From NCBI GenBank assembly GCA_032718475.1, contig JAUCBJ010001616.1, positions 98,909-162,908 of the forward strand: a DNA stretch of 64,000 nt, given 5' to 3'. The position numbers and the translations under genes are program-made. The number at the start of each line of letters is the position of its first letter. The first letter of the stretch is position 1. This DNA comes from Nemertoderma westbladi (lineage: Eukaryota; Animalia; Xenacoelomorpha). Of the stretch, positions 961-56,951 are shown one piece after another. The notes below the pieces were generated by a model, which saw nothing but the letters and a program-made list of their open reading frames with translations, was not told where the DNA came from and did not search any database.

Positions 961-1106
961 GTAGGTATGGGTTAATTAATAATACTGACGGATAGTTGAG
1001 AAAATAATTTGTGATACTTTTCTGTAGTAAATACTGTTTTTAATACATTCTAAATGAACAGAAAGAAATGTATATATATATACATATTTATTTGTTTGTC
1101 CTTCAG

Positions 1107-1717
1107 GATATGGTGACGTGATACCTGGTTCTGTGTTGGGCAGACAATTGACAATTGTTATCGCTTTGTTTGGTATTCCACTGATGATTTATACACTGAA
1201 TGCATTCCGAGGAATCCACACATTCATTGGTTATTGTCTAGACGAAGTTATGTTTCATTTAAAGCCAAAATGGCTAACAGTACAAATGAGCACTGCGATC
1301 TCGGCAGTCGTCCATATAGTAACTTCCTATTTGCTTATATTTATATTGCCAGCGTTGTTATTCAAACGCATGGGATATAATTGGACTTACGAAATCGCTT
1401 ACTATACAACATTTATAACGTACAGTACTATAGGTTTGGGTGATTACATCCCAGGGGATGAGGAAATACAGGAAACACCCGAGCAAAAAGCAGGATGGCA
1501 TTCATTGGGAATTCTCTGGTCACTTATGGTGATGATGGTGGCGGCATTGTCATACTTTTCGTCATTAGTCAACGCGTTAGCTGGTGGTACCTTGAGGCAG
1601 CATCTGGGGCTGCATAAATGTAAGAAAGACCAGAGCCAAACCACCAGCTATTTCAATAACATAAGTGTTGGTCAGGATTCTGTCGACGACGCTTATCTCT
1701 TGTCGACGATATCGTGA
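1107..1717 (+). CDS. K2P potassium channel, terminal exon (TM2, TM3, pore 2, TM4); GYG/GLG filter pair as in TWIK-type channels
   Basis: Acceptor cttcag 1101-1106. Reads GYGDVIPGSVLGR...ALFGIPL, then second pore YYTTFITYSTIGLGDYIPG and hydrophobic TM segments; stop TGA at 1717. Upstream exon(s) not identified. Confidence 0.9.
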
Positions 1718-1779: not shown

Positions 1780-4700
1780 GTATTTGTATTTCCTTTCCAT
1801 TATCGGGCACTAATGACCCATGCTACTGTACGTACATTTTTAATATACTAAACGAAACACATAACACAAAATTAATTACGGTTGGACCCTACAATCTATA
1901 ATTAAATTCACAGTGACCGACAATCGACCAAAGAAAAAAAGAACAAAAATGAAACCAATAGAACTTCATTATACACTATCATTACAAAGTGAAAAATGCA
2001 AAAAAAAAAACAAAAAAAAAAAAATTTACGAGGGTGGATATTTATGGCCCAGTATTGCGAATATATTAATTATACAATATTACACAGATAGAAGTACTTC
2101 CCAACGGTCCCGTAAAGTCGAGGACGTACAAATATTAAAACAAACTGAAAGTAAATCGTTACTAGAAGACGCTACTCGCCTTGCGAACGAGCCTGCCGCA
2201 ACCCTACATATTGCTACAAAAGCATTAACTCGATTATTTACAAAAATTGTATCCGCGTCATCACAGCGACAATACTTAAAAAGTAACCTGAACGCAGTAT
2301 TGTAGGCTACACGGACCTTACGTAGTTCCTCAACTCTAAATATACTCCACAATGAAGTACAATAAAGACTGTAACAATAAGTTTTAAATAGCGCTCGTTT
2401 CACTGGCAATGAGCAACCGCCAAAGAAGCGTGCTAACTGGTTACCATGGCGATAAAGAGAACGCTTAGCAACCATCATATCAGACTCATCTGACAGTGAA
2501 CTACTAAGTATGTGTCCTGGATAAGTAAGTTCTTTTACGCAAGGTATTATTTTACCACATAAATAAACATCCCCAGATCTACCTAGTTTACATGGGTGAT
2601 AATATAAACACTTAGATTTACCGGGGTTATACAGAATATCCGGATCGATACCATACTTTTCACAGATTCGTAATAGCACTCTCAGACCCTGTATACTGGG
2701 GGCCAAGACACAAAGGTCGTCGGCGTAAAGTAAGTTATTTATCCTACTGGACCCAACTTTACATCCTACAGAAGCACGATTTAATAATTTACTCAAATCA
2801 TTAAGATAAATGTTGAACAAAAGAGGAGACAACAATGAGCCTTGTCGTACAGAGTTACCGACACGAAAAACAGCTGAGGTAGCATTACCCCAGGTTACAG
2901 TTAGCACTTGGTTAGTGTACCAGTAGAATAAAATACGTACTATACACACGGGTACTTTGAGATTTAATAATTTCTGAAAAAGTTTGTAATAATTAACCCG
3001 ATCGAACGCTTTACAGGAGTCTAAGAATGCCACATAAACAGGCGAGTCACGAGAGATATATAAATGAACTGTGTCTTTAAGAACATATATACAAGTCTCG
3101 GTACCCAGTCCTGGACTAAAACCAAATTGATTGTCGGTCAATTTCGTTTTTTCCTTAATTCTACCAAATATACAAGATTCAAACACTTTAGCACAAATAT
3201 TAGATATATTTATAGGCCTATAATTATCCTTATCAGACAAAGAGGCATTCTTATTCTTTACAATAGGAAACAAAGCACAAACCATAAATGAACTAGGAAG
3301 ATATCCATGCGTTAATAATGCATTAAACAATAACGATAAAATAACACAGAGGTTATCACCGGCATACATAAAAAGTTCCGGACAGACGCCATCGGGCCCG
3401 GCGGCCTTCCCGCCATTCAGCCCCTCGATAGCCGATTTTACTTCGCGAGGGGAAACATGAGTTTTCCCCTCACCATCCCAATTTTCAAAGGTTTTCTTTA
3501 GAGACGAGATATCTTTCTCGTTGACGTCAACTGAGTTAAAAATACGTTCATAATTACCACGAAACAGATCAGCAATATCCGCGTCAGAATGAGCGTCACC
3601 AACTGAAGACGCTCTAGGGATTCTAGAATTAGTTATTTTCTGGGTTTGACGCCAAAAGTCCTTATTAGAAGCGAGAAATGAATTGGCCAATTTATCATTC
3701 CGAATCTCCTTCTCTCGGGCTCTACAGTTACGTAGAGCCAATTTATATTGAGCTGACGTTTTCCTTTTTACTTCCCAAAGCAACCCCGTTTTAGGGTTTC
3801 CATTTTCCCGCCAAATACGGAAGGCCTCACGAGAGGCCTCTCGTTTTTCTTTCACAAATTCATTCCAACCGGGGACCACTGGTTTGTTAGAGCCCCCCGT
3901 TTTAGAATCCCGAAAACATTCCGAACCAGAATTTTTCAAAATACGCATAACATTATCATGTAGCAACTGAAATTGTAACAAATGTGCCTCGTTGCAACAA
4001 TGTACATCAGAACAAATAATTACTTCGTGGGGCAATATAATATCAGAAAATAAAACATTAGTACGATCGGCATATGCACGTTTCATGTTATTATCTACTT
4101 TGTCCCAGAAGGGGGCGCTATAATTCTTACGTGAGTCATTATTCAAATTATTAGTTCCATTACAAAAATTATCACTGCGAAAAAATAAATTTGAATGAAA
4201 TAGGCATATGATCAAACTCTGACACCTCATACAGTATCTTCATATCCAAAATTAACTTATGAAATTCGCAACTCGATATCACGTGGTCGAGCCAAGACAC
4301 GGTACCGTGTACATGGCTCGTGTATGTGAACGAGTTACTAGGTAACAAATGAGAGTCAGAAATATACAGCTTTTCACTGTCGCAAAATTTCATAAGTTCC
4401 TTGCCAAAGCTTCGGCGCGGGTCAGCGTTAAAGTCTCCCAATATACAGTTACTAGTAAAAGTATTAAAATCAATGATCGAACCACATTTACCCAATAATT
4501 CAGAGAAATGGTCCATATTATCGTTCGATTGGCACGGCATATAAACATTGAGAAAAAGGCTCTGTGGGCCATCCGGGGCGCCAACCCGCAGACCCATAAT
4601 ACGCTCCTCATTGAACTCCTGAAAATTAATATAAGGAGCCAATGGCTTGCGCCATAAAGCCGCCAAACCACCATGTGGCCTACCCACCCTCGGGCCGAGG

Positions 4701-4975
4701 GACAGGTCGACTGAGGAGACTCCCCTACCAAAAAAACTATCGTGGATAGAATTCAGTTTATGCAGATCTTGCTTTACCATCCAAGTTCCCTGTAAAAAAA
4801 CAATATCATGACTGTCTAGCAACTTAGTAACGTGGGGCAGGTTATTATCAATGCCATTACAGTTAAATGTACATATACGGAGCGAACTAGATATGGGTGC
4901 CATCACGCTTTCTGGGACCATAGAACGAGCCTGGGCCCCAATACTCGTACGGCTTTATGTGTAACACGCCAGTGT
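1780..4975 (-). mobile_element. 5'-truncated LINE (APE endonuclease + RT; RTEX-like, clade uncertain), inserted antisense just after the K2P stop codon
   Basis: ORF 4172-4921 has APE motifs (TFNCNG, GDFNA, LDH, FDHMPI). ORF 2080-4230 has RT motifs (NYRPI, KAFDRV, RQGSLLSP, YADD) and a PGWN motif. Element ends approximate. Confidence 0.9.
2080..4921 (-). pseudogene. LINE ORF2 (EN-RT) broken by one frameshift near 4170-4230
   Basis: Two overlapping ORFs in different frames together give a complete EN-RT protein; the break lies near an A6/T6 run. Confidence 0.85.
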
Positions 4976-5410: not shown

Positions 5411-5642
5411 AGTAGTAATGGTTTACCCTATTTCTGCGACAGTTTAGTCCAACTTCACACCTTGGGTGTTAAGTAGGTCATTAATTAATTAACCAATTAA
5501 TTAATTGGTCGATTAAACAATTAATTAATTGTTTAATCAATCGATTTGTATCAAATAATGTTGCCAAAGGCAATTTAATTTGACACAAATCAATCAGATA
5601 GGGACGCGCGATGAATAAATTGTACTACAGCAAACGAAATAT
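5411..5642 (+). repeat. Left outer terminal inverted repeat
   Basis: Reverse complement of 11299-11527 (e.g. cacaccttgggtgttaagtag...atcagatagggacgcg...tgaataaattgtacta). Confidence 0.92.
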
Positions 5643-5644
5643 CG

Positions 5645-6240
5645 AGGCCCAAAACATAAATTACCCTCACACGAAAATAAAGTGGCCCCAGTTTGGCCCC
5701 GAGTCATCCCTCAATAATCTATGGCTGGTTGGGATCTTATTAGCCGTAGCATAACTAACCCAAACATCAATGCGTGAATGGGGCCTGCTACAGAGTTTAA
5801 ATTATTCAAACCCACAGCTTCGTTATTATATCAATTCATCCAAGAAATTAGAATAAACATCTGGTATGGCAATAGTTTGCATTCTTTCATATTGTGCAGT
5901 TTACGCATGCATTAGCTCAACAACAAAGCCCTACCCAAACGCCATGTGTCAAATTAATTCCCAACCATATCTATACCACAGTGGATACTGCAGTTTTATT
6001 GTTTGAAAATATGCCTAACCCCTCACGCGCCGTTGGACTCTTATTAGCCGTAGCATGACTAACCCAAACATCAATGCGTGAATGGGGCCTGCGTGAATGG
6101 GGCCTGCCACAGAGTTTAAATTATTCAAACCTTCAGCTTCGTTATTACATCAATTCGCCTAAGAAAATTATAATAAACATCTGCTCTTGCAATAGATTGC
6201 ATTCTTTCGCATTGTACTTTATGAAGCAGTCCACTCGCGT
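5645..6240 (+). repeat. Subterminal repeat modules (5645-5980, partial re-copy 6030-6240), inverted relative to 10108-10445 and 11050-11200
   Basis: Shared blocks such as gcccaaaacataaattaccctcac / gtgagggtaatttatgttttgggc and cagagtttaaattattcaaacc / ggtttgaataatttaaactct. Confidence 0.85.
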
Positions 6241-6816: not shown

Positions 6817-6900
6817 AAAACTGCCCTGGTCCATGTGAGGATCGAACCCACGACCTACTGGAGATGTGAATTCAAAGCAACCACTACACCAAGGTGGAAC
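6817..6900 (-). ncRNA. tRNA-like / SINE-head Pol III unit (left copy)
   Basis: On the minus strand: A box TGGTGTAGTGG, T-arm GTGGG-TTCGATC-CTCAC containing the B box, then TTTT terminator. No clear anticodon arm. Confidence 0.6.
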
Positions 6901-6968
6901 AGTAACGTTCGAATTTGTTCGTTAACGTTCGAATTTGTAAGACTCTGATTTAAGACCTGAGGCACTCC

Positions 6969-7550
6969 CCACAACCACAGCCACAGCCACAACCACAGCC
7001 ACAACCACAGCCACAGCCACAGCCACAGCCACAACCACAGCCACAGCCACAGCCACAACCACAGCCACAGCCACAGCCACAGCCACAGCCACAGCCACAA
7101 CCACAGCCACAACCACAGCCACAGCCACAACCACACCCACAGCCACAACCACAGCCACAGCCACAGCCACAACCACAGCCACAGCCACAACCACAGCCAC
7201 AACCACAGCCACAGCCACAACCACACCCACAACCACAGCCACAGCCACAGCCACAACCACAGCCACAGCCACAGCCACAACCACAGCCACAGCCACAGCC
7301 ACAGCCACAGCCACAACCACAGCCACAGCCACAACCACAGCCACAGCCACAACCACAACCACAGCCACAGCCACAGCCACAACCACAGCCACAGCCACAG
7401 CCACAACCACAGCCACAGCCACAGCCACAACCACAGCCACAGCCACAGCCACAACCACAACCACAGCCACACCCACAGCCACAGCCACAGCCACAACCAC
7501 AGCCACAGCCACAGCCACAACCACAGCCACAACCACAGCCACAACCACAG
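6969..7550. repeat. (CCACAG/CCACAA)n hexamer array
   Basis: Directly visible; inverted partner of 9157-9966. Confidence 0.97.
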
Positions 7551-7656
7551 CCTCACCTTCACCCACTTTATTGTTAAATACGCCTGAGAAAAATTCAAGA
7601 AACATCTGGTTTACAATAGATTATTCTTTTTTCACAACTCCATTCTAGCCTCCCTC

Positions 7657-7690
7657 TATAAAAGCCCCCATTCACCGCATTCTCATTCAT
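7657..7690 (+). promoter_or_regulatory. TATA box + initiator for the zinc-finger ORF
   Basis: TATAAAAG at 7657 and TCATTC at 7683 and 7687 (about 26-30 nt downstream); AATAAA after the gene at ~8928. Confidence 0.55.
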
Positions 7691-7803: not shown

Positions 7804-8562
7804 ATGCCTAGCTATGAAAGATGTTTGGTTTGTAATAAAGAAATGAGACGAGACAGTATATCCCGTCATATGAGTATACATAGAAAGGAAGGTGTAATGG
7901 AACCATTACCAAAGAAATTAAAAAATAATGATGATATTTTTAGTGAAGAAGAAAACAAAAAGAGAGTTGAGAGTGATTTTCTAGAGATTAAACAAATGAT
8001 GAAACATAAATTCGAGAAAATCATGAATATTTTGAAGAATATACAGAAACAGCCACATAGTGAAAAGGACGATGAGAGTGAGGAAGAGAATAAATCAGAG
8101 GAAAGTGAGAATGATGAAACGGAGAGTGAGATAGAGAAAGAAGAAAATGAGAGTGGTGGTGAAGAAAATGAGAGCGAGAAAGAAGTCGAGGAACATGAAA
8201 GTGGTGAGGATAATGACTCAGATAATGAGGAGATATTAAGACATGTATTAGGAAATAAAAATAAATTGCAGAAAATAATTAGACAATTGAATGAAATGCA
8301 GAAACATTCGCATAAGGAGAGTGATAATGATGGAAATGAGAGTGATGAGGATGAATCGGAGGAGAGTAGCGATGACAGTGAGGAAGAATCAAAGGAGGGT
8401 AGCGATGACAGTGAGGAAGCATCAGAGGAGAATGACAATGAAAATGGACAGAAAATCAGAGTAGGGAATGGAAAAGTTATATCTCCGGCAACTGTTGTAT
8501 ATCGACCTAGGATTATGAACAGTAACAGTCGTACAGTTAGTGCGAGACAGTGCAGAAGATAA
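7804..8562 (+). CDS. Intronless protein: N-terminal C2H2 zinc finger, basic NLS-like motif, coiled-coil and long Asp/Glu/Ser-rich tracts (element cargo)
   Basis: 252-aa ORF with CLVCNKEMRRDSISRHMSIH, PLPKKLK and acidic runs, flanked by TATA/Inr and polyA signals. Confidence 0.7.
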   Translation: MPSYERCLVCNKEMRRDSISRHMSIHRKEGVMEPLPKKLKNNDDIFSEEENKKRVESDFLEIKQMMKHKFEKIMNILKNIQKQPHSEKDDESEEENKSEESENDETESEIEKEENESGGEENESEKEVEEHESGEDNDSDNEEILRHVLGNKNKLQKIIRQLNEMQKHSHKESDNDGNESDEDESEESSDDSEEESKEGSDDSEEASEENDNENGQKIRVGNGKVISPATVVYRPRIMNSNSRTVSARQCRR

Positions 8563-8834: not shown

Positions 8835-9156
8835 TAATTATAACCGAAATATTGTATATGTTTGAAATATTTATTATATTTAGTCGTATTAATTATGTAA
8901 TTTCATAATAATATGCTTAATTAAACAAATAAAGTCAACTTGATCCTGAGTTCTGAGTCGTTTTGTGTGGTGGTGGGTAATTGTATTTGTAATTTTAATT
9001 TGTGTAATGGTCTAATATATATTATATATTATAAACCACTATAAATGATCAGTCCTGTCTGATCCTATTTTAAATGCATAATGAATGAGTAACCAAAACA
9101 TCAAATTAGTTAAACATTTTGACAACAGATAAACAAATATTCTCCTGTGGGGAGAA

Positions 9157-9966
9157 GTGGTGGCTGTGGTTGTGGCTGTGGTTGTGGCTGTGGTTGTGGC
9201 TGTGGCTGTGGTTGTGGCTGTGGCTGTGGTTGTGGCTGTGGCTGTGGTTGTGGCTGTGGCTGTGGTTGTGGCTGTGGCTGTGGCTGTGGCTGTGGTTGTG
9301 GCTGTGGCTGTGGTTGTGGCTGTGGCTGTGGCTGTGGCTGTGGCTGTGGCTATGGCTGTGGCTGTGGCTGTAGCTGTGGCTGTGGTTGTGGCTGTGGCTG
9401 TGGTTGTGGCTGTGGCTGTGGCTGTGGTTGTGGCTGTGGTTGTGGCTGTGGCTGTGGTTGTGGCTGTGGCTGTGGTTGTGGCTGTGGCTGTGGCTGTGGT
9501 TGTGGCTGTGGCTGTGGTTGTGGCTGTGGCTGTGGCTGTGGCTGTGGCTGTGGTTGTGGCTGTGGCTGTGGCTGTGGTTGTGGCTGTGGCTGTGGCTGTG
9601 GCTGTGGCTGTGGTTGTGGCTGTGGCTGTGGTTGTGGCTGTGGCTGTGGCTGTGGCTGTGGCTGTGGTTGTGGCTGTGGCTGTGGCTGTGGTTGTGGCTG
9701 TGGCTGTGGCTGTGGCTGTGGCTGTGGCTGTGGTAATGGCTGTGGCTGTGGCTGTAGCTGTGGCTGTGGTTGTGGCTGTGGCTGTAGCTGTGGCTGTGGT
9801 TGTGGCTGTGGCTGTGGTTGTGGCTGTGGTTGTGGCTGTGGTTGTGGCTGTGGCTGTGGCTGTGGTTGTGGCTGTGGCTGTGGCTGTGGCTGTGGTTGTG
9901 GCTGTGGCTGTGGTTGTGGTTGTGGCTGTGGTTGTGGCTGTGGCTGTGGCTGTGGCTGTGGTTGTG
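9157..9966. repeat. (GGCTGT/GGTTGT)n hexamer array
   Basis: Directly visible; reverse complement of the 6969-7550 array. Confidence 0.97.
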
Positions 9967-10035
9967 GGGAGTGCATCAGGTCTTAAATCAGAGTCTTACA
10001 AATTCGAACGTTAACGAACAAATTCAAACGTTACT

Positions 10036-10107
10036 GTTTCACCTTGGTGTAGTGGTTGCTTTGAATTCACATCTCCCGCATGTCATGGGTTCAACCCTCA
10101 CATGGAC
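10036..10107 (+). ncRNA. tRNA-like / SINE-head Pol III unit (right copy)
   Basis: A box tggtgtagtgg 10045-10055 and B box ggttcaaccc 10088-10097; inverted copy of 6817-6900. Confidence 0.55.
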
Positions 10108-10566
10108 TTGACACATGGCGTTTGGGCGATGGCTTTGTTGTTTAGCTAATATGCGCGTGGACTGCTTCGCAATACAATGCGAAAGAATGCAATCTATTGC
10201 AAGAGCAGATGTTTATTATAATTTTCTTAGGCGAATTGATGTAATAACGAAGCTATAGGTTTGAATAATTTAAACTCTATCGCAGGTCCCATTCACGCGT
10301 TGACATACAGTATAGGATTCGATGTTTGGATTAGTCATGCTATGGTTAATAAGAGCCCAACGACCGCAGATTATTGAGGGATGACTCAGGGCCAAACTGG
10401 CCCACTTTATTTTCGAGTGAGGGTAATTTATGTTTTGGGCCCCGATTGTGTCTTTATATTTCATTCTAGAGTATAACTCAACGTGGGATTCCGTGGGATG
10501 CTTAATCCTTCACGCATGCCATACCAAAAACTATGGTTCTGTTTGAAATGTTAAGGTGGACCTTTC

Positions 10567-10600
10567 TATATAAATAAAACCATGTAAAGTTAGATCATTA
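10567..10600 (+). promoter_or_regulatory. TATA box + initiator for the GTSF1-like ORF
   Basis: TATATAAA at 10567 and TCATT at 10595 (28 nt spacing), the same layout as the 7657 promoter. Confidence 0.55.
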
Positions 10601-10703
10601 TCTCTAAAAAATATTAAGCGAGGTTTTTCAAAGTTTTTTTTTTTTTTTTTTTAAAAAGTAAATCTAAATAAATTTTGTCTTTTGTCTTTTGTCTTTTGTT
10701 ACT

Positions 10704-11015
10704 ATGGAATATTTTATATGTCCATATGATGCCACACATCGAATTCATTCAGAAAAATATGTCAACCATTTAAGAAAATGTCGTAAGAACTTTCCCAGCG
10801 AAAAAATGGTTCAGTGTCCTTTCGAAGTCGCACACAGCTTCAGAGAAGCTGAAAAGGACCACCATCTGCTGTATTGCGAATATAGGAACAGGAACTCAAT
10901 TTTTCAGAAAATAAAAGAGGAGAAAAAAGAAGAGAAAAAAGAAGAGAAAAAAGAAAAAAAGGTAGAGAAGAAAGGAGAATGTTCGATGGCGTGGGGAGAA
11001 GAGGTGTGGGATTGA
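10704..11015 (+). CDS. GTSF1: GTSF1/Asterix-like protein: two CHHC (U11-48K-type) zinc fingers, charged linker, C-terminal W..EExWD motif; 103 aa, intronless
   Basis: CPYDATHRIHSEKYVNHLRKCRKNFP and CPFEVAHSFREAEKDHHLLYC match the GTSF1 pattern CPYD..H.I......HL.KCRKN.P...CPF...H.....E..HH...C. Ends AWGEEVWD. First ATG is at 10704. Confidence 0.88.
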   Translation: MEYFICPYDATHRIHSEKYVNHLRKCRKNFPSEKMVQCPFEVAHSFREAEKDHHLLYCEYRNRNSIFQKIKEEKKEEKKEEKKEKKVEKKGECSMAWGEEVWD

Positions 11016-11298
11016 AGTTGGTATGCGCGAGAAAAACTACAGTAACTAGTATAGAGAAGATTGGGGTTAATTTGAGACATGGTGTTTGGGTATTGCCTTT
11101 GTTGATGAGCTAATACAACGACCGCAGATTATTGATGGATGACTCAGGGCCAAACTGGTCCACTTTATTTTCGAGTGAGGGTAATTTATGTTTTGGGCCC
11201 CGTTCTCATCTTTATATTCATTCTACCTTTACCTACTGTACGGCAAAAATAATACAAATGTATTGTATATTATATTGTATGGTTCCTATTGTGTTGTA

Positions 11299-11527
11299 TA
11301 TTTCGTTTGTTATAGTACAATTTATTCATCTCGCGTCCCTATCTGATTGATTTGTGTCAAATTAAATTGCCTTTGGCAACATTATTTGATACAAATCGAT
11401 TGATTAAACAATTAATTAATTGTTTAATCGACCAATTAATTAATTGTTTAATTAATTAATGAACTACTTAACACCCAAGGTGCGAAGTAGGTCCAACTGT
11501 CGCCAAGAGTGGCAAACCATTACTACT
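11299..11527 (-). repeat. Right outer terminal inverted repeat
   Basis: tagtacaatttattcatctcgcgtccctatctgattga...acacccaaggtgcgaagt...aaaccattactact mirrors 5411-5642. Confidence 0.92.
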
Positions 11528-13935: not shown

Positions 13936-16901
13936 ATGTATATTAGATATTAGATATTTGATATTTTTGTTTATTTTTGATATTGTTCATTTTCATTATG
14001 TTTGATATTTTTTTTTATCTGTTCTTTATTATATTTTTCATAAATGGCGAATTTTCAAGGATCTAGAAGCCTTAACATAGTATCAACTGCAACTCTGTCA
14101 GAGGTGCCTCTTTGGCAACTATAAAAGGTTTATGTAGTTTTGCCGATATTATTTGTTTACATGAGATTATGCTCCCCAAACAGGAGCTTGGTTTTTTACA
14201 AACAATTTCAGATAATTTTTATGCAAAGGGATTTAGTCCTGTTGACTTACAGGAACAATTACTAATTGGAAGGCCATATGGCGGACTAGCATTTTTGTGG
14301 CGTAAAGTATTGGGAAAAATTATTGTAATTTTAAAGGATATTGGTGATGATAGGATTAGAATTGCAGTAATTAATACACATGAAACTGAACCTTACTTGT
14401 TTAACGTGTATCTTCCATACGAATGTCCAGAAAATGTAGACGATTAATTGGATTACTTGGGTACCCTCACTTCCCTCATAGATGAGATGAACAGTCCTTT
14501 AATTGCTATTGTAGGAGATTTCAATGGTGACCCCTCAAGACGGAACTTTGGTAATTTTATCAAATTTTTTGTAGAAGATGCCGGGCTCACATGGAGAGAT
14601 TTTGAACGTCAATCAACAGTTACACATACATTTGTCAGTTCAGCCCATCATACTACATATTGGCTAGACCACATCGTATGTAGCGGTTCTATGGACTCTA
14701 AAGTGTTTCACGTATCAACATTCCCAGAATTACTAACTTCCGATCACATACCGATATCTATGATACTATCTTTGAATTATGAGTTACGCTTTTGCGACGC
14801 GGGAATTCCACCAGGTACAACTCTAGAAAGTTCAGGATCAGTTAGTTTTTGTTTCTCAAAATCCCCCAGTAGAGACTGGTCTCGCGCAACGTCTTGTCAT
14901 TTAAACTCATATAAAAGTGTTTTAATTAAGGAACTGAAAAGTATAGATATTCCGTACAGCGTTCTTTCCAACACATCCATTGACATTAGTGATGATAATC
15001 GTACTCAGGTAATAGATGACTATTATGAGAATATTGTTGATGCCATTTTAAGAGCGTCTAAGGAATCAATTCCGGCTCGTCCTTGTGGAGAGAAGGATAA
15101 TAAACATGACCACTCGGTGCCAGGTTGGTCTGAGTTGGTTAAAGATAAATACGATCAGGCCAGGGAGGTCTTCTTATGGTGGCGCGCAGTCGGTAGTCCT
15201 AGAGATGGTCCTATCAGTGTGGAAATGCGTAGAACACGTGCGTTTTTCAAACTAGCTTTTAATTAATGTCGTAGGACTGCAGAAAGAATTAAATCTGACA
15301 AATTAGCAGAAAGTCTCTTACATAGAAAACCCAATGATTTTTGGATAGAGGTCTCCAAGATGAGTAACCAGCATACAGTCATACCTGACAGTGTAGATAC
15401 AGCAAATGGTGAAGAGGCTATATGCGATATATGTGGCGCACTGAGTATAGTCAGCTGCTTAATCAGGATCCCAAGAAAAGCAAGGAACACAAATGGAAGA
15501 TCTAGTACATAATTTGATCCCCGACAGTGAGGAAAATCCGAAGGATAGTGCAGTGAGCGCGTCAGAAATTTTCGAGGCCATTAAGGAATTAAGTGGAGAG
15601 AAAGCAATTGGGACAGATGGTGTAAGTGCAGAACATTTACTCTATGCACCAGCCGAGTTATCTGTGCATATTTCTTTTTTGCTAACAACTTCATTGTCTA
15701 ACAGTTACTTTCCATCAAAGTTTATTGTAAGTTATATTGTACCTGTTTTAAAAAACAAGAATGAAAAAATAACTGATAACTGTAATGATAGACCAGTTGC
15801 AATATCAAATATTTTGTCTAAAGTTCTATAACGAGTGATTCTTACGCGTTATAAATCACATTTAATAGTCGCTGATAATCAATTTGGTTATAAAGCTAAT
15901 CATAGTACTGATTTCTGCAATTTTGTACTGAAGGATATAGTATCAGAATACATCCGTATACATATTACATATGCTTAATTGATGCCTCAAAGGCTTTTGA
16001 TAGGGTGATCCATTCATTAATATTATTTTTTAAGTTATTAGACAAGGGCGTGCAGAAATCTGTACTTATTCTACTCACGTCTACTGGTATAGTCGTCAAG
16101 AAATATGTGTTAAATGGGGAAAGATATTTTCTGGTTTATTTTTTGTAACCAATGGAGTTCGTCAGGGTAGTTTAATATCTCTTGTGTTTTATAATGTATA
16201 TATGGATGATCAAACTATTTTACTAAATAATAGTGGTTTAGGGTGCAAAATTAATAATTGTAGAGCTAATAATATTTCTTACGCAGATGACATTTCCCTT
16301 ATGGCAACAAGTACTCTAGCGTTACAGAAATTAATTGATATTGGAAGTAAATACGCTAACGATCATTGTCTTACATTTAATTTAAAGAGAACGAAATGTT
16401 TATATTTTAAGGCACGTTCTAGAACAGATTTTCCACAGTGCGGTGTATTTAAATAGGGAAGTTGTCAAGGTTGTTACTAGTGCTACTTATCTAGGTCATA
16501 TCATTAACACGAACATTAATGATAAACCAAGGACTTCTAGAACATAGTATATATTCAGGACGCGATGCTCGCATATAGTGTTAATTTTATTAGAGGCCGG
16601 TTTTTTCTATTCAGTGTAGGCCTAATTACTTTAATTTACAGAAGTAAACTTCTCAATTTCCTTTCATTGTTTTTAATGCAAACGTTTTTAATGTTTTTAA
16701 TTTGTATTGCTAACAACCTAATGTACTAATGTACTTAATGTAAATATTTTACGACAATTTGCTAGCGATAATTTATTAGTACAAAAAATAACTAACACTG
16801 TTGAAAGATATTCGAAATAACCTTTGAAATTGTTCTCTGTTCAAAATTTCAGTTTTCTCTTCTTTCTATTGTTAGTCTCTACATCTCTGACATTAGCCGC
16901 T

Positions 16902-17537
16902 TTATTGCTGTAGAACTTGGAGAGTCCCTTCATCATTATATTGCAGAGTCTGGATAATACCTGCCTTCCTACCATCAATAGCACTATCTACCACGGTATT
17001 GTCATATATGATATCGACAAATCGCCTCATCCTGGTTGTACATCCAATATAGCGCCGTTTGGTAAGTGACAGTGAAGCACAGGCTAGATGAAATATATCT
17101 GCACGGGGAATTGAAAGCTTTCCTCTAGAGACCATGTTCGTGAAGTCACACTCTGGAAGTTGTGAACAATCTCCAAGTTCTGAGACATCAATGGGCAGTT
17201 GTTTCTTGAAGGTCACATAGCCGCATGCATACATCAAAGCGCTTTTCTCTGTGTCACTAATGCTGTATTTTTCATTTTCAAGGACGTAGTCAATATCTTC
17301 CAGTTCATTATTAGTTAATTCGCTCGTGCAGCAGTGGTTCTTTTCGTGACTAATAGGTTCGATGTCAAAGCTGTGGTAAATCTTCGCTCGTCGTAATCTC
17401 TCTGAATACATGACCTGTTCTAGAGAGATGTTATAATTTCCGCCACTCATTTGCCTATATACTCCAAACTCTCCTTCGATCGGATCAGACTGTAGTAAGC
17501 CAAGCAAGACATAATTATATCCATTGACTCTAAGCAA
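16902..17537 (-). pseudogene. C-terminal part of P-type transposase
   Basis: YVLLGLLQSDPIEGEFGVYRQMSGGNY (catalytic Glu region), YACGYV and SRGKLSIP motifs; the central domain is missing. Confidence 0.82.
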
Positions 17538-17631
17538 GTCCTCTATCTGACAGATCTTTTGTCAAACTCGTCAGATCAGGTGATATTTTATCTAACTGAA
17601 TGAATTCCGCTAGTTCATCTCCTTGTTGATT

Positions 17632-17949
17632 TCAGATACTCGAAGATACTCCACGCTTATTAACTTCTCTTGATGATGATGAAGTTTGTCTGTTGTTTAT
17701 ATCAGTTCCGAATACTGATGGAGCCTCCAGCGGTCTTTCATACCTTTTTATCTTGATCATCTCAGCGTTTTCTGGCCAATGTCGCGCACATACTCCAATA
17801 TTTGGCGTTACTTTCTCTATTCTATTTGGTATATTCTCCAACCAATAATGTTGGTCTATTAAGTTTTTTGGGAACTGGTAAACTGTTACCTTCTCTTCTT
17901 GCGAGGCATAATTTCCTTCACAGCCTGCCACAGAGCATTTGCGTGGCAT
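17632..17949 (-). pseudogene. THAP DNA-binding domain (N-terminus of P-type transposase)
   Basis: MPRKCSVAGC...YQFP...W...VCARHW...APSVF is the C2CH THAP signature with an AVPTIF-like box. Confidence 0.85.
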
Positions 17950-19025
17950 CGATAATGTGATGATTTGCAGAGATTATCAAATGTCTGTTATATTATTATC
18001 ATGTACTGTATGTTCGAACTAATTGACTGATAAATTATGAGATCTACTCACCCATGGAATACTAAATAATTATACATGTATATTTAGTATTCCATGACTC
18101 ACCTAATGCTACTTACAGATCATTTCTATTTAAATGTTAAAAATATTATAATCTTAAAATATTTCAATAATAAAAAAAAATACGTTTTAAAAAAGTAGCA
18201 ACAACTAGCTAGTATGTACAAGATCTTTTAACTTGATGAAACAAGTTCTTGAATAAAAAGTTAAGATTAAAACCAAGGGGTCCTAAACTATTTGATTGTT
18301 AAATTTGCGAGAAATTTCCACTGTGTTTCTGTTTACTATGTAATAGGCAATACTATTAATTGTATATGTGCAACTATAGATAGTTTATGTATTGGTAATT
18401 TTTGTAATAATATTGTAGTATAATTTCCGCCATTACTATAGTATTTCAACTGCATTTCTTTTATTTAGCTACACTTTATCTATAAACTAAGAAACTAAGA
18501 TAATGAATACCGGCCTCTAATAAAATTAATTAACACTATATGCGAGCATCGCGTCCTGAATATATACTATGTTCTAGAAGTCCTTGGATAAACTCGATAT
18601 TGAAAATCAAACTCGTAGCCTGTACCGCAGAGGTAACAGTATTGTTAGGAAATTTAATAATTGTTCAACTGCAGTTAAAAATACTTTGTTTAGATCATTT
18701 TGTTCCGGTATCTATGGGTGTAGTCTGTGGTCCGTATATACAGTTAGTGCATTAAAATCAATACAGCTCGCTTACCACAGGATCTTTCGGAAATTACATC
18801 ATTACCCCAGTAATTGCAGTGCAACAGAAATGTTTATATTTAATAGGGTTCCTACTTTCTTACATATAAGACGTAGATCAGCGTACAGTTTATATTCTAG
18901 AATACAACTATCTGATAATTCCATAGTTAGGTGTGTTCGAATGTTACGTTTTAAGTACGATTCAAGTTTATGGTCTGTATTTAATTTCCTTTTGTTCTAG
19001 TTTCTACGAATTAATATCAATATCT

Positions 19026-35772: not shown

Positions 35773-36799
35773 CTTTTAAGTATAATTATTTATATCTTAT
35801 AATAATAATTACAATTAATTTCCATTTAAGATTTCCAGCAATTTCCTTGAAAATGCTGTTTTTACCCTTATTTAATAACTTAATTCAACTTAATTAATTT
35901 TAATCTAATTAATTAACTGCTCTTAACTTAGCTTCTCGAAGACCACATGCAAATTCAACTTGGAAAAATTCTAAACTTTTGCCAAACAACATGTGTAACA
36001 AGTTTGGATAGATTTCATTTGGCTGAGTTATTAATGTTTAAAATTGAACTCAACAGAACGACAGACACACCGATTGAATTAGTGGTACCCGTATGCTAAG
36101 CTCGCTTACTTTCGTGGCTCGCCCCACTAGCCAGTAAAAAATTAAATAGCTCCATAAAATACTCTAATATAATCGCAACCATAACTAACTAATAATGTTA
36201 ACAAAAAGTTAACATAGAGAAACTACTGCGTAAGAGCCAAAACGGATTTCGACCAAGTAGATCAACAATAGCTCAGATACTTGCACTACGGAGACTGATT
36301 GAAGGAATTAAGTCAAAGAATCTCCCCGCAGTCATGACTTTTGTGGACTTCAAGAAGGCATTCGACTCCATCCATAGAGGTAAAATGCTTGAAATCCTAA
36401 GAGCTTATGGAATACCAGAAGTAATTGTTGCTGGCATTGGATTGTTATATTGTGACACAGAAGCGCAGGTACTCTCACCAGATGGCGAAACTGAGTTTTT
36501 CTCAATCCTGGCTGGCGTACTGCAAGGTGACACATTAGCACCATTACTATTTGTAATTGTGCTGGATTACGCAATGAGGACGGCCACAAAGGGTGAAGAT
36601 CTGGGATTCACACTTCAAGAACGCAGAAGTAGTAGATATCCGGCAACTACAGTCACAGACACCGACTTTGCGGATGACATCGCCCTGCTCTCTAATACGC
36701 TAGCAGATGCACAGCTTCTACTAAATAAAGTGGAGAGGGCTGCTAAGGAGGTTGGATTGCATATAAATGCTACCAAGACCGAATTCATGACCTAATATA

Positions 36800-40649: not shown

Positions 40650-41502
40650 ATGGCGCGGATCAAGGAACTCAAAATGATCCCGGGTACCGAGGAGGTTGTC
40701 TTTGTGTCTTACAACCTCCCCTGTATCATAAACTCAACAACTCTCTACAAAAAGGAAGATCTACCGGTATCCGGAGGTTCTAACGGTTACAGGAGAGTCG
40801 CGGTTTCTACGGACGGGAACCGCGTTGCCTCGGGAACCTGGGCGGTGGGGTCGGTGACTGTCTGGGAGCGGGAAGCGACCGGTTGGAGGGTCGTAGTGGA
40901 GGTACCGGGGAGGGAGTTCGTGGTTGGTGGGGGGAAGTATGTAACTAGGTGGGGAATAGATATAAATCCCTCCAACCGGGACGTCGTTGCAACTTGTGGG
41001 GACGACGGGGGGATTTCTATTATATCAATAACTGGGGGGAAATATAAGGTTAAGAACTGGGTGGGGCATTCTGAGTCGGTTAACTGTATTCGGTTCGACT
41101 CGAACGGGTCCCGGTTGGCCAGCTGTTCGGATGATGGAACAGTAAAAGTTTGGGGGACCGGAACCCAGGAGATGTTGTATCAATACCGGGGGCACAGTGA
41201 GGGGGTCTGGAGTCTGGGTTGGGGTCCGGATGGGGAGTCAGTGGTGTCGGTAGATGGGAGAGGAGGGATCCATCGCTTCGTTGTTGGTGCAGGGGAGACC
41301 TTGTGGAGACAGGAAGCAACTCCTGAGGTCTCGAGGATCGTATTGAGTCCCAACGGATCCAGAATCGCTGCTGTTGGGTGGAACACCGGGTTGATTTATA
41401 TTCTAAATTCTGTAACTGGGGAGATTATCAACCGGATTAAAGGAACGGGGAGCGGCATCGAATCGGTCGATTTCTGTAAAGATGACCGGCATATTATTAC
41501 AG
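40650..41502 (+). CDS. WD40-repeat exon of the ROCO gene
   Basis: GHSESVNCIRFDSNGSRLASCSDDGTVKVW and GHSEGVWSLGWGPDG motifs. Acceptor tttag at 40625-40629; donor ACAG|gtaatt at 41503 in phase 1, mid WD repeat. Confidence 0.88.
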
Positions 41503-44500
41503 GTAATTAATTAATAGACCTCTTTTATTAAAACACGTTAAATTAATTAATTAGGCCTAGGGTCTAATTCAGTACCGTACCACGTACCATAGTAAGTAAT
41601 AATCATTATAACACTTAAATGAATTAATTACATTAATTATTATTATTTTATTTTATTTAATTAATAATTTACTTACCGATATGATGCGGATTAACTGAAC
41701 ATTAACTTCACTGCCTCCTGCCAAGATTGGGTACGATGGGAACGAAATTTAAATTAGTCTAATATCAGAATATAGACCATTACAACATAGTCCCTGTAGT
41801 CGGATAGTTTTAGGTGCGGTTTGGTTCCGGTAAATGTAACATAAAAATAAACTAATAAACCAGCAATTAGCTTAATAATATTATGTATTCAGTTATCTGT
41901 TAGGTTGTTTGTTATTGGTTTGTATCAATGGCGTTTTAACCAACTGGTAGTTCTACTTAAATAAACAAACTATAATGGTACCGATAGGCGTACCGGTACT
42001 GCAATGCAGTAAAGTAACTGTACAGAGAATACAACCGGTAATGTATAATAAAAACTTTCATTTTTAGGTCTGCCACACAGTCCAATTACTTAGGCATACA
42101 ACAAGGTGTATTATATTATATAACACCTTGCCCGTAATAAAGTGTCATTTTAGATAAGAAGGGACACCCCTAACCCACACCCCACCTTATTTTTATACAA
42201 TCTTTATCATACTTTATTTAACATGGAGCTACGTATAATTTTCTATTTTGAATTTGTAGACGTTTAACGTTTGCGATATCGCCCTCATTGCATTACGACC
42301 ATTCCTCATATTATTAGCCACAACGACATATTATTAGAAAGCTCGAGTTGTAAGGATTCCAAATATAAATATATTTTGAGCTTCGTTGAGAAACAGCTGA
42401 GATATAATACTGGCGTTCAAAGATTGTGATAAATTATCATTCGCTGGAAGTCATTTATTATAATTAATATAAACACAACATTCTAGAACGTGTTATTATT
42501 TTTATCATTTTTATGATAAAAATCCCATTTATTTATCCTATTTATTATATATTATTATATTTATGTATGCATAGCTACACATATACATAAATAACTGGTA
42601 TACAGTATTATAATGAAAGATACTTCTTGCAATCTTAGAACGCCCATATCTCATCTGTTTATCAACGAAATTTAGACATTAATACATATTTGGAATCCTC
42701 ACAATGCAAACTTTCAAATATATAAAAAATAAATCACTATTGATGAGAAAAATGGGCAACGAAACGAAGGCAACAATTTCGTAAAAGTCACTTTTATAAA
42801 ACGCTAACGTAAAAATTTAAATGTAAAATTGAAAATTCTGGTTACATGGGGTCCTCTACTCTGAGTTGAACTAATACAATTGTTAACTTATTTCTGCCTA
42901 TACAGTAAGTCTGCGAGTTAAATTATCGTGCAGTGGGGAGCTGATTTTTTACTCATTGTGTTTGGAATATGACTATTTTATTTACAGCCACATTTACTAT
43001 TTACAACTGTATGGCAATATTCCTGATCTCTTACGGGGTCAGGCAAAGACAACTTTTCTCTATAGTATTTAGACCGGTAGTGATACAGAATATGATACCC
43101 TGACCTTTTTGAAATTTCCCACCATCACAAACAAACATACTTTCCCACAAACAAAGAAATGTATCATTGGATTTGGTAGGTTTTCTCATGTTACAATAAG
43201 TGTGGAATTATTGTACTGTTTATAGTAGAGTAAGTGTCTTTTTCAAAAATTACGAGTGTACAGAACAGTGAGTGTGGAAAAATAGTAATGTAAGTTCATA
43301 TAAGTATATAAGTGCCACTCATCAAAGAAAGTACAATTTTTAATGTCGTTTTATTCCTGGTAAAATAAATTATTATAAAAATATATGTATATAAATTTGT
43401 TCGTATTGGAATAGTTTCGTGAGTTGCCAAATCGGTTGGATCTATATATGGGAGTCTAGAACTGACACGTTATATTCGTCGAATAAGTGGCCATTGTCGA
43501 TACAGTGTTGTGTTATTCCACAACGTTTATAGCCATTATATAAGACCGCATATAACTGTAAATCGGTACTTTTTATTTACCAATTACCATTATTTACATT
43601 CAAATTTTAAGCCCACCACCAACACTGTCAGTAAAAACTATAACACTCTCCATAAATAATGTTCGTTGTGGCGCTTTACATGTTTTCGTTTAAGTTTCCC
43701 AATGTAATTATGGTCAGTTCAGGCATTACAGTCTATTTTACATATTGCATGCATGTGTTTAACCTTCTTTCCCAACCCTCTTTAAATCGGAGCAAATTTG
43801 TGGAAATTTTCGAAACAGTTTCAAAACGAGTCAACTTAAACTTTGTAAAAAAAATTTTAAGGGGGGGATACACCATTTTGGAACAAAATACGTCGAAATT
43901 TTTTTTAGGGTCTATTATAATGCACCATTGAATGGTGTTTCCAAATCTGAAGACCGTTATTTAATAGCTCTTTTAGTTGTCAAGTTATGTAAATTTCCAT
44001 TTAGGGAATCCTATTGAAATTACTATTACTATGTATAATGAAAGGTCGATTATCTCCAAATATTTTTTTCATGAAATTGTCAACTTCAAAACCCTACCAC
44101 TTCTACAATTTTTAAGTAATTAGTCTGAAACTTCCTGTGGGTGTCTAGATAGCCACCCTGCGTATCAGACAACTTTTCGAAATTTTTTGTTAATAAAATT
44201 TAATACTATTTATTAAAAACCTAAAAATTTGCATAAATTTTGCAGCGCCACCTATTGGTGTAGAATTATTTTAACAAAATTTCGCCTGATAGTTATGTTG
44301 CCCCATCTTTGATCTATCATATAAAAAACTTTCATGTGATTAGGTTCAAAACTGCAAAAGCCTAAGGGATTTAAGCGCAACCAAGTTTTTTTTTTTAACT
44401 AGTATTAACTAATATTAAATAGCGAAAAAAAAATTTTTCTGACCTGTCATGTAGAATAGCATCTTAGGCACCTATATGCCAAATTTTAGCCAAAACCAAA

Positions 44501-48254: not shown

Positions 48255-51200
48255 TTAATATACAGACATTACTGACTCTATATACCTACACAATTGTTCA
48301 ATATTATCCATATTACCATTGAAAAAGATACTTATATTTTGCATATTTAACTGTGGGTACTGTCTGCGTATTGGTAGTGATATTGGGCAATGTAACAGTG
48401 TGTGCACTTCGTCCTGAACGGATTTGTTATCACAGGGACACACTCGCTCCTCGTGTGGAATCCGTGACCATCGCCCTCGTTCTACAAACAGGTTGTGCGA
48501 CATTAATCGCATTCTGCTGAAGTGCGCCCTAATATAATCCGGTACATACGGGGATTTCAGGCTGTAAATCGAGTGGCATGTCAGGTCCATATTCAGTGAC
48601 GTCCTGTATGTGACAAACTTGGTCGCCGTGCTTGGCTTCTTGCGTATTCTAGTAAGAATGTCGCTGTTAGTCGGGCTTGGTTCGGACCACGCCATAGCAC
48701 ACTTTATCATGTTGTACCCTGGTGAGTTTACATTCTTACAAATGGTAAGTGCCTGTCGGAAAGGTGTGTCCTCTGGTAGCGTATGTAGAGCTTTCTGTAG
48801 GAACCGTTTGCGGTATTTCATTATGCGTGTTTGAATGGAAGGCATCCCTACTTCTATTAAACAAATGTCGGTCGGGGTTTGTTCCCGTACACCTAATAAT
48901 ATTTTTATCATACGGCCATAAAATATATCTAAACTCTTAGTATTATTAGTTAACCAGCCTTCGCAACCATATAGGAATGCTGTAGCTACTGCAGCCTCAA
49001 ACACCTGCTTTTTAACACAAAAAGCAATATTTGTATTGTGCGCACAAAATATAGAAAATTTATTTACAATCTCCTCGCACCGAGTTTTATGTAGATTAAA
49101 AACTGAGTTGAATTTACCATCTTCTGTAAAAATAGATCCAAGATAGGTGTATGTAGTACAATGGTTAACTGTTACGTCATTTACAACTAGAGGAGTTCTA
49201 TCGTACATTGCACCATTAACAACGAAAAACTTTGTCTTTTTTACATTTATCTTCATACCAGACTCTTTACAAAAAGCTATAAGAGCACCCAATTTACGCA
49301 GGCACAAATTACGGTTAGTAGAAAGAATTATAGTATCATCCATTAGTAACATAATATGCAAAATACCCAAATAACCATCCTGGGTTACAGTATTACACAC
49401 CATTGTTACCAGATTGTCAATATATAAGCTAAATAATATTACACTAGTAGCTGCACCTTGTCTTACGCCTATGGCTGTACATATTATAGCGGATTTCAAT
49501 ATACTTTTAGTACATGTATAAGTAGCTAAGATTGCCATTAACATTACTTTTCCACAACCCAATTTTCTTAATCTTTCAATAAGTTTCATTCTAGGTATAT
49601 TATCGTAAGCCTTTGAGAAATCTACAAATAGTACAAAAAGTTTCTCCCTTTTAAAAATCGCATAATCTATAAGTAGACGCAGTGCTAATATATGTTCAGT
49701 GCAACTGCGGTTTTTTCTACCCCCTGCCTGACACCTACTTATATTGCACCATAAGGACAGTCTAGCTGATAATAACATATCATAAATCTTAGCACAGGTC
49801 TCCATAATTGATATACCTCTGTAATTACCACAAATAGCTCGGCTCCCCGATTTGAAAAATATTATTAATTTACTGTAGCACCACGATGTGGGGTACGCCC
49901 CAAATTTAAACACGAAATTAAAAAATGCAAGAAAAAATATAAGCCAATTACCAGGTAGCGAAGTGAACAATCCAAGTGCGACACCTATGTAACTTTTATT
50001 TATTTTTATTTCACTTAAAACTTCCGCAAATTCCTTTTCTGACAACGGATCATCTAGAATCGGAACATATGGAGCGGTTGAAAATTCGTCAGTCATATGC
50101 ACTGTTTCCGCAGATGGAGGATTCAGTAACGCTTCAAAATGGCTTTTAAATTGGTTGTCATCTGGCATACTCTCTCTCCTGGGTTTTAGTTTATCAATTT
50201 CACCTTTCCAGTTTACTGCATGCCAGATTAATTTAGGGTCATTCAAAGAAACTAGCCTCGCCCACCGATCATTATTAGATTCAGGTAGATTAACATTGTG
50301 TATACAATCGTATTGCTTTTTAACTTTGCAACTTTTGGCCGTTTCATTTAAAATTTGTGTTGCAGTTTCTACTATATTCTGCCCACCCTCTCTACTAGCG
50401 TCATTAATTATCGGTGGATGAATACTTGTAATAAGGTCTTTAAACTGGTCTAAATTAGTATTGCAATGGCTGGGTCCTTTCTCCCCAAGTGGGGTTGTAC
50501 GGTAATTATTAAAATTTAATTCAGTCCACACCGCACCCAAATCACCTGCTCTGTCATATATCGCACTTGTTAAATATTTTTTATTATTAATATTAATTTC
50601 TACTTCTACCAATAAAGGTGCGTGATCCGAGCCATGTTGGTTTCTGTCTACACTAACTTTAACTACATTACTAACCAAACAACTCGTAATTACACATAGG
50701 TCCAATGAGCTTACCCATGATTTACCCTTCCTATAGGATAAACCCCCACCTAACACACCCCTCCCTGTTTCTAAATGGTTTGCGACTACACTCCCAGTGG
50801 TAGAGCATATACGTAGTAACCGTTCCCCATTGCTATTTACAGCGTTATCTTCCACCCCGTGATACTTTCGGTTAATCACATGCCGTTCACCGGTGTATTT
50901 AGGGACCCCAACACGTGCATTGAGGTCGCCAACAACTATAACCTTTCGGTTCTCTTCAAGGGTGGCATTCAGGTTCCCGAACATTTGGGTCGAAAAATAG
51001 CGAGAGTCACAAGGGGTTATGTAGGAGGTACCGATCAAGGTATCAGGCGCGAAACTAAACCGCAGCCATAGCTGATCCTCCTTACTCGTATCCACTTCTA
51101 ACACGAATTTAGCTAATGTACATTTCACCAAAGCCAATATCCCCCCGCGATGGGATGGTGTTGGCGTATTAATATATTGGGTGAAGCCGGGTACGTGTGT

Positions 51201-53240: not shown

Positions 53241-53700
53241 CGTTTATCCTTGCTATAATGCGTAATTTTGGATTAACTATAAGAAAGTTTGAGATGTCAG
53301 TTATATTCGATGAATAATTCAGGGTTGGAGCAAGTTAAATATTATTAATCAAATGTCAAATATAATTACATATATATTTCGGTAGCTCAGCGCTATCTTT
53401 ATCAATAAAGTACAAATTCTAATATAAATTGCAGAATTGACTAACGTAACGTACGACTTGATATCTGTTGAAAATTGCACTAAAAACAGAATAAATGTTG
53501 TAACCAAAAAACAGAAGACATAGGCAGGGAAACGTATAGGGACCGTAGGTGCATACTGGAGAGCCTAACGAATTATATTTATAATTATATTTGTAATTTG
53601 ATTAATAATATTTAACTTGCTCCAACCCAGAATTTTTCATCGTAATATTGGATGTCAACTCAGTGGAAAGACAACTTAACAATAATTATACTTTATACAG

Positions 53701-56700: not shown

Positions 56701-56951
56701 AAGTTGAACTGGTTTATAACATGGAGCTGAGTGAATTGTTACCGCTATTGAGAAGTAGAAATATTCTTACTGAAAATCTTATTGAGCAGATCAAATATCA
56801 GCCGACTGGTTTACAAAGGAACAGCGAACTAATAGAAGCCATTAAAAGGAGACCTTATGATGACTTTATTGCATTCTGTGAATTATTGAATAAAACTAAC
56901 CAGAGCCACTTAGTTAAATTACTAACTAGAAAAAAATATAAAGACAGTTAG
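53701..56951 (+). CDS. Terminal exon of ROCO gene: end of WD40, winged-helix-like segment, Roc GTPase, COR, two CARD-like death folds
   Basis: Acceptor ctttatacag at 53700. P-loop GQERAGKTS, G2 TDGID, G3 DFGGQ, G4 VGTK; COR motifs (FYHDRGRII, ILKPEWL, LERFDLIC, YYVPC, FLPEGLFYRL); CARD-like ...AFCELLNKTNQSHLVKLL. Confidence 0.9.

Follow-up and report, generated by a model that had tools for sequence, protein, structure and literature searches.

A GTSF1/Asterix-type gene carried by an inverted-repeat element of Nemertoderma westbladi

The GTSF1/Asterix-type reading frame

The window analysed here (64,000 nucleotides of Nemertoderma westbladi contig JAUCBJ010001616.1, position 1 being its first letter) contains at 10704-11015 of the + strand a stop-free frame of 103 aa whose C-terminus reads WGEEVWD. 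The features of this gene are:

10567..10599, + strand: TATA box and Inr-like motif, predicted promoter (2% of shuffles)
10704..11015, + strand: GTSF1/Asterix-like ORF, 103 aa, intronless (translation, Pfam, PDB sequence match, homologue scan, AlphaFold, fold search)
10719..10877, + strand: CHHC zinc finger pair, codons 6-26 and 38-58, with H15, K18, K25 and K28 opposite mouse R26, R29, K36 and K39
10878..10991, + strand: Lys/Glu-rich linker, variable in length among copies and unusually basic for the family
10992..11015, + strand: C-terminal W-x4-W-D motif and stop, aligned to mouse W107/W112; the DNA of the motif is retained in diverged copies

The predicted zinc ligands are C6-H12-H22-C26 in finger 1 and C38-H44-H54-C58 in finger 2. 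The ORF matches the Pfam family zf-U11-48K (PF05253) with an E value of 2.8e-9 and 37.1 bits, above the cut-off of 21.1 (when single stretches are taken, finger 1 only passes this cut-off). This Pfam search, which the original prediction had itself proposed, together with translation confirms the intact, intronless 103-aa ORF with two CHHC fingers and a WGEEVWD end that had been described there. Moreover, a sequence search of the PDB gave E 1.2e-12 for mouse GTSF1, E 8.6e-10 for the GTSF1 chain of 9nhb and no better than E 0.05 for U11-48K; these values and the mostly GTSF1-like names among its relatives place the ORF closer to GTSF1 than to U11-48K or TRM13. An AlphaFold model of the protein, made with 42 aligned homologues as input, has a mean pLDDT of 85.5; in a fold search with this model, mouse Asterix/Gtsf1 (6x46) ranked first and the GTSF1 chain 9nhc_E, from a SIWI-piRNA-target-GTSF1-Maelstrom complex, ranked second. 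Judged by its sequence, the 103-aa ORF is a GTSF1/Asterix-type protein, and the proposal of a captured GTSF1-type gene is borne out by the Pfam, PDB sequence and fold matches. We entertained the idea that the frame is an exon of a longer host gene; the ATG start, the stop directly past the Trp motif, the TATA/Inr pair on the 5' side and the element DNA that flanks the frame on both sides rule this out.

Relatives of the protein are numerous and distant. At E ≤0.001, HMMER picked out 527 relatives among 1.84 billion representatives, none of them close, the best full two-finger matches having about 47% identity, and among the 30 relatives that we looked up those with names are mostly animal GTSF1-like proteins. 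A word-based protein search gave zero matches, both with the whole 103 aa and with residues 1-66. Neither a relative of the protein nor a short homologue stopping just past its Trp was found in viral and metagenome contigs; viral structures gave no fold match to the model at E 0.001, and no PHROG was assigned. A tree of 140 finger regions puts the protein on the fifth longest of its terminal branches; the nearest group has a support of 0.46, and no neighbour is supported. For want of resolution in this tree we leave the donor lineage unclaimed. (Note that P0030, P0031 and P0081, nameless GTSF1-like proteins of 105-107 aa from public contigs, end 1-2 residues past a Trp.)

Mouse GTSF1 requires R26, R29, K36 and K39 for RNA binding and cleavage stimulation, and it holds PIWI tightly by means of W98, W107 and W112 (PMC9385479). 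The former four positions are occupied by H15, K18, K25 and K28, and are thus basic in three of the four cases, as far as sequence tells. The histidine at the R26 position is no clear defect, because arginine stands there in only 37 of the 152 other two-finger proteins (in a set in which 153 of 169 proteins, the ORF protein included, fit the two-finger pattern). W97 and W102 align with mouse W107 and W112 at identical spacing, providing two of the three PIWI-binding Trp residues, and the alignment shows no aromatic residue at the position of W98. From what is known of the family, the expected partners are PIWI or a Tudor protein for the W-x4-W-D tail and RNA for finger 1. The linker has a predicted net charge of +4, in the top three of about 113 proteins. 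It is this basic linker, together with the lack of a W98 equivalent and the long branch, that sets the predicted protein apart.

The original prediction had read the stop right after the Trp motif as a hint of a decoy, and this part of it does not hold. The ORF protein is one of 10 of the 153 two-finger proteins that end at most 10 residues past the last Trp (some of them perhaps being cut gene calls). Silkworm Gtsf1L has a tail of 39 residues that ends near W99-D100-D101 (PMC10711660), and it activates slicing by BmAgo3 (PMC9808576). Because Gtsf1L is short, ends in W-D and is nevertheless an activator, the short tail is no sign of a decoy, and we consider the idea that such a tail makes a dominant negative to be ruled out.

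The element that carries the gene

Self-comparison of the window places the ORF, as predicted, in the right arm of an element bounded by terminal inverted repeats (TIRs). The ends, at 5411-5642 and 11298-11527, measure 233 bp with 93% identity and enclose an element of 6.1 kb, the parts of which are:

5411..5642, + strand: left TIR, beginning AGTAGT; 93% to the right end
5641..6238 (5641-5952 and 6031-6238), - strand: left-arm subterminal blocks, inverted copies of 10108-10446
6829..7566, - strand: tRNA-like head (box A/box B) and hexamer microsatellite, left copy, an inverted copy of 9364-10107
7804..8562, + strand: second element ORF, 252 aa, a C2H2-like finger followed by acidic repeats; TATA at 7657
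9140..10107, + strand: microsatellite and tRNA-like head, right copy; box A at about 10045, box B at about 10088
10108..10468, + strand: subterminal block 5' of the gene; its last 111 bp (10358-10468) are repeated at 11116-11225, 93%
11116..11225, + strand: the other copy of the 111-bp repeat, enclosing the gene cassette together with 10358-10468; in forms that lack the cassette, 10468 is joined to about 11233
11298..11527, - strand: right TIR, ending ACTACT

The GTSF1 cassette sits in the right arm, between the 111-bp repeats at 10358-10468 and 11116-11225. Inner inverted blocks (5641-5952 against 10108-10446, and 6829-7566 against 9364-10107) make the element a near-palindrome around a 1.6-kb core, within which the second ORF lies, with arms that differ by 7-20%. 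In the left arm, 5911-5997 matches the DNA directly 3' of the GTSF1 stop, and the gene itself is missing. The paired inverted ends and blocks found by self-comparison rule out that the gene is a host gene with chance flanking repeats. Note also that inverted hexamer microsatellites of the GCCACA/ACCACA type, at 6961-7551 and 9140-9975, could fold the element into a hairpin of more than 700 bp.

Maverick/Polinton elements have a 6-bp target-site duplication, are 12-25 kb long and carry genes for a protein-primed polymerase, integrase, capsid, ATPase and protease. Their TIRs measure 46-1447 bp, and 5'-(AGT)2//(ACT)2-3', that is AGTAGT...ACTACT, is the commonest end motif of vertebrate Mavericks (PMC8097293). 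The element agrees with them in the length of its TIRs (233 bp) and in its end motif, with AGTAGT at 5411 and ACTACT running to 11527. No repeat of 5-8 bp abuts both ends within 3 bases, and the 6.1-kb element holds no integrase, polymerase, capsid or other Polinton core gene; outside microsatellite frames its ORFs are the GTSF1 and the C2H2/acidic ORF only. The patterns of the TIRs were found at 37 viral loci and one metagenome locus, and we judge these to be chance because none of them aligns past the pattern. Of the Polinton assignment in the original prediction, then, the end motif and the TIR length stand and the target-site duplication and core genes are absent. We consider the element to be probably a non-autonomous Polinton derivative, the label being taken from the end motif alone.

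The gene had also been credited with its own TATA/Inr. A TATA motif does occur at 10567, followed by an Inr-like TCATT at 10595 and with no upstream ATG, and such a pair, 26-28 bases apart, lies 5' of both element ORFs. Each pair, however, turns up in 2-3% of shuffles (2% for the pair at the GTSF1 gene), and what remains of the claim is a motif, a predicted promoter at most. The second ORF contains an internal duplication of 283 bp (8267-8549/8551-8833) that ends the frame early; its C2H2 match reaches only E 0.07, it has no family assignment, and no relative of its N-terminus was found in viral or metagenome contigs. (A weak feature-level likeness, of 0.81-0.83, links it to small zinc-finger proteins of giant viruses.) The tRNA-like heads, at 6829-6893 on the - strand and 10041-10107 on the + strand, have very deep cover and many unlike flanks in public contigs, and neither ARAGORN nor Rfam calls them tRNA. 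The tRNA-like repeat is likely a SINE head.

Elsewhere in the window, a ROCO-type protein of 1099 aa, in which Roc, COR and two CARD stretches are recognised, is encoded without introns at 53652-56951 (+), and an intronless 286-aa WD40-repeat frame, which has no clear orthologue among solved structures, lies at 40650-41510 (+). A two-pore potassium channel gene (Ion_trans_2, E 8e-13) has its last exon at 1058-1717 (+). LINE-type endonuclease/reverse-transcriptase frames, some of them broken, occupy 2080-4954 (-), 14076-19000 (+), 36334-36795 (+) and 48255-50984 (-), and a THAP-domain frame at 17632-17949 (-) lies inside that of 14076-19000.

Copies in public sequencing runs and selection on the protein

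The stretch of the window was found in three public sequencing runs, X1, X2 and X3, which come from two samples and two studies and one of which is possibly the source of the window. In X2, 10706-10799 is covered by at least five distinct contigs, whose differences from the window number 2, 12, 15, 22 and 25; in X1, 10764-10791 is common to at least four versions, with depths of 37 to 334. (The contig counts for X1 and X2 derive from 24 of 81 pieces and are therefore lower bounds.) Copies diverge by up to 16% from that of the window, and at least four versions in X1 and at least five in X2 exceed the two alleles of an individual, the samples being possibly pooled. A single-copy host GTSF1 locus, the alternative that the original prediction had itself named, is ruled out by at least four to five versions per run with up to 16% divergence.

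A second version (15 differences, 12 gap letters) leads from the end of the ORF into the subterminal block of the element, with joints of 11013 to 10134 in X1 and of 11011 to 10223 in X3. The link between gene and element is therefore not peculiar to the copy in the window; the public contigs being short, this link could be read for the second version and not for the most diverged ones. Forms free of the cassette, with a joint of 10468 to 11233, occur in X1, X2 and X3. In X1 the summed contig depth is about 300-1300 over the ORF as against 25,000-84,000 near the TIR end, which suggests that gene-bearing forms are a minority of element copies, depth not being equal to copy number. Five bases are inserted after 10820 in one contig of X3, and H44 is altered in one minor version; some copies are therefore decaying. 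In a further run with the same species label, X5, the TIR is covered and the ORF almost bare, missing cover being no proof of absence in a library whose type is guessed. Between 11119 and 11504 this run shows 59 A-to-G places, many of them in a single contig of 521 nt that lies over right arm and TIR; these places look like A-to-I hyper-editing of fold-back element transcripts, if X5 is RNA (it is guessed to be DNA).

We examined selection with the best-supported 40 of 54 substitutions in 10733-10883, from two samples, the Trp region being left out as a repeat. Substitutions were scored one base at a time on the codons of the window, against a null in which the same types of change were placed randomly in 20,000 trials. 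As many as 23 of the 40 listed substitutions are synonymous when 11.2 were expected, a number reached in 0 of the 20,000 trials, and the crude dN/dS among the listed substitutions is 0.17. A zinc ligand is changed by one of the listed substitutions (H44, in the minor version) as against 4.8 expected. None creates a stop, where 1.5 were expected; the probability of zero stops under neutrality is 0.21, not significant alone. The diverged contigs align over the fingers and, for 22-24 letters, at the Trp motif, and the linker between them is unlike; provided that those letters end the records, it is shorter by 48, 48 and 42 bases, all of them whole codons. The gene family is under purifying selection as a protein and not neutral, and the doubt that the original prediction had raised on this point falls away. 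That gene, fold, place in the element, several versions per run and protein-level selection hold together is a conclusion in which we have high confidence.

Possible action on the piRNA pathway

We favour, at a probability of roughly 0.4, the reading that the element-borne GTSF1 mimic docks on host PIWI instead of host GTSF1 and weakens piRNA silencing of the element family. The 103-aa protein would occupy PIWI in place of host GTSF1 through its W-x4-W-D tail, and the resulting complex would be unproductive, through poor slicing, a lack of hand-over to Maelstrom/Tudor partners (a Piwi-Gtsf1-Maelstrom complex is cited in PMC13269885) or faster turnover of PIWI. As an alternative step, the mimic might drive the turnover of target-engaged PIWI; a precedent is the Gtsf1 of Paramecium, which was proposed to drive degradation of the PIWI-RNA complex (PMC11724296). 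We propose an anti-silencing sign because a gene that is kept by selection in a parasite lineage should serve the parasite. For a competitor of host GTSF1 speaks the divergence from host-type proteins (47% best identity, the long branch, a linker of +4 and a non-aromatic residue at the W98 position). Against it stand the absence of an inactivating lesion, with three of four RNA-binding positions basic and both tail Trp residues retained, and the fact that Gtsf1L, of the same length and with a W-D end, is a working activator. No lesion being visible, the anti-piRNA reading therefore rests on evolutionary logic. Moreover, a diffusible inhibitor would also benefit existing cassette-free copies, so that selection at the level of the element is not obvious. 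The sequence does not settle the direction of action.

A rival that fits nearly as well, if somewhat less probable, is a working activator: the element would distribute a minimal GTSF1 of full activity and so increase slicing by PIWI, favoured either through the host (as an extra dose or as a family of domesticated paralogues) or because it holds competing transposons down. All the activator features examined appear to be retained, the architecture is that of the activator Gtsf1L, paralogues and intronless retrocopies of host GTSF1 are common (PMC9539491, PMC6505081), and host-level selection would account for purifying selection on a diffusible protein with no cheater problem. Such a protein would, however, strengthen the silencing of its own carrier, and the copies belong to a dispersed, high-copy element family with gene-bearing, gene-free and some broken members, unlike a fixed domesticated locus. 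We think it rather improbable that a rewired GTSF1 works for the element by way of some non-PIWI partner, such as a Tudor-domain protein, an RdRP or a tRNA-like RNA (for example the box A/box B head 600 bases upstream). Binding of Vreteno by Gtsf1L depends on W99-D100 (PMC10711660), GTSF1 binds tRNA (PMC9539491) and both arms carry tRNA-like heads, and the 103-aa protein has a long terminal branch. In nematodes GTSF-1 has switched to RdRP, but there it lost the aromatic residues and the basic surface (PMC13650160), both of which the 103-aa protein retains; the tRNA-like head, moreover, recurs in great abundance beside many unrelated flanks, so that its nearness may be chance.

Two further readings take the protein of the present copies out of play. 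That selection on the gene dates from an autonomous Polinton ancestor, and that the copies of today are silent passengers, would suit an element with no mobility genes or target-site duplication, with arms that differ by 7-20% and with some copies broken; the open frame and TATA/Inr pair kept by the copy in the window and the lack of stops among the 40 listed substitutions (for which the neutral probability of 0.21 has to be borne in mind) speak against it, and we regard it as improbable. Least credible of all, and in our view very unlikely, is RNA-based anti-silencing of the TART type, in which the captured sequence yields piRNAs against host GTSF1 mRNA and the protein is irrelevant. Fragments of nxf2, piwi and aub have been captured by telomeric transposable elements at least eight times, but these known captures are fragments of 140-235 bp, and they have to share about 90% of their nucleotides with the host gene (PMC13534243); here a whole ORF is present and its changes are mostly silent (23 of the 40 listed), the opposite of selection for a nucleotide match.

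The candidate competitor of host GTSF1 can be set beside several known systems. With GTSF1/Asterix itself (6x46; silkworm 9nhb/9nhc) the ORF shares the CHHC finger pair with the same spacing and fold, lysine at mouse R29, K36 and K39, and W-x4-W; it differs in being element-borne and present in several versions, in having no W98 equivalent, a histidine at R26 and a basic linker, and in stopping one residue past the last Trp. Silkworm Gtsf1L (PMC10711660, PMC9808576) is alike by description, rather than by alignment, in its length of about 100 aa, its two fingers and its short Trp-Asp tail; it is, however, a host paralogue that activates BmAgo3 and binds Vreteno, whereas the ORF is element-borne and known from its sequence only. 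Nematode Mavericks carry host-derived cargo beside the TIR, namely wasp proteases and krma kinases (bioRxiv 10.1101/2022.07.12.499685), and share with the present element both a host-derived gene adjoining the TIR and the Maverick end motif; here the cargo is an intronless piRNA-pathway cofactor, and the element has neither core genes nor a target-site duplication. The telomeric retrotransposons of Drosophila likewise took pieces of piRNA machinery (nxf2, piwi, aub; PMC13534243), but as short fragments that are thought to be sources of piRNAs, whereas here a whole, protein-selected ORF lies in a DNA element; the available text of that paper mentions neither GTSF nor Asterix. VANC of Arabidopsis transposons (PMC5735166) is, as proposed for the 103-aa protein, a diffusible transposon-encoded protein acting against host silencing; it targets DNA methylation at element-specific motifs in plants, and homology to the ORF is not claimed. 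Among adintovirus accessory genes no piRNA factor is named in the available text of PMC8502044. A literature search for GTSF1 with Polinton returned a review (PMC11125864) and one for Polinton with CHHC no match, and among the matches listed we found no transposon- or virus-borne GTSF1 (supplementary annotations could hide one), in keeping with the original prediction, which was aware of no described Polinton-borne GTSF1. The GTSF1 family, Maverick cargo and transposon capture of piRNA genes are thus known kinds, and what appears to be new here is that a piRNA cofactor selected as a protein travels in a mobile element.

The element bears on the question whether transposons of animals produce proteins directed against the piRNA pathway; the animal cases considered here act via captured RNA fragments (PMC13534243). 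Since a simple in vitro assay for GTSF1-dependent slicing exists (PMC9385479), the question is directly testable with one 103-aa protein. If the protein inhibits, it would offer a natural tool against PIWI and reveal contacts of GTSF1 that separate binding from activation; it would match, in an animal, the RNAi suppressors of viruses and the anti-CRISPRs, and be made from the defence's own cofactor. An activator would be a booster of genome defence that is spread by a mobile element, which would be likewise surprising.
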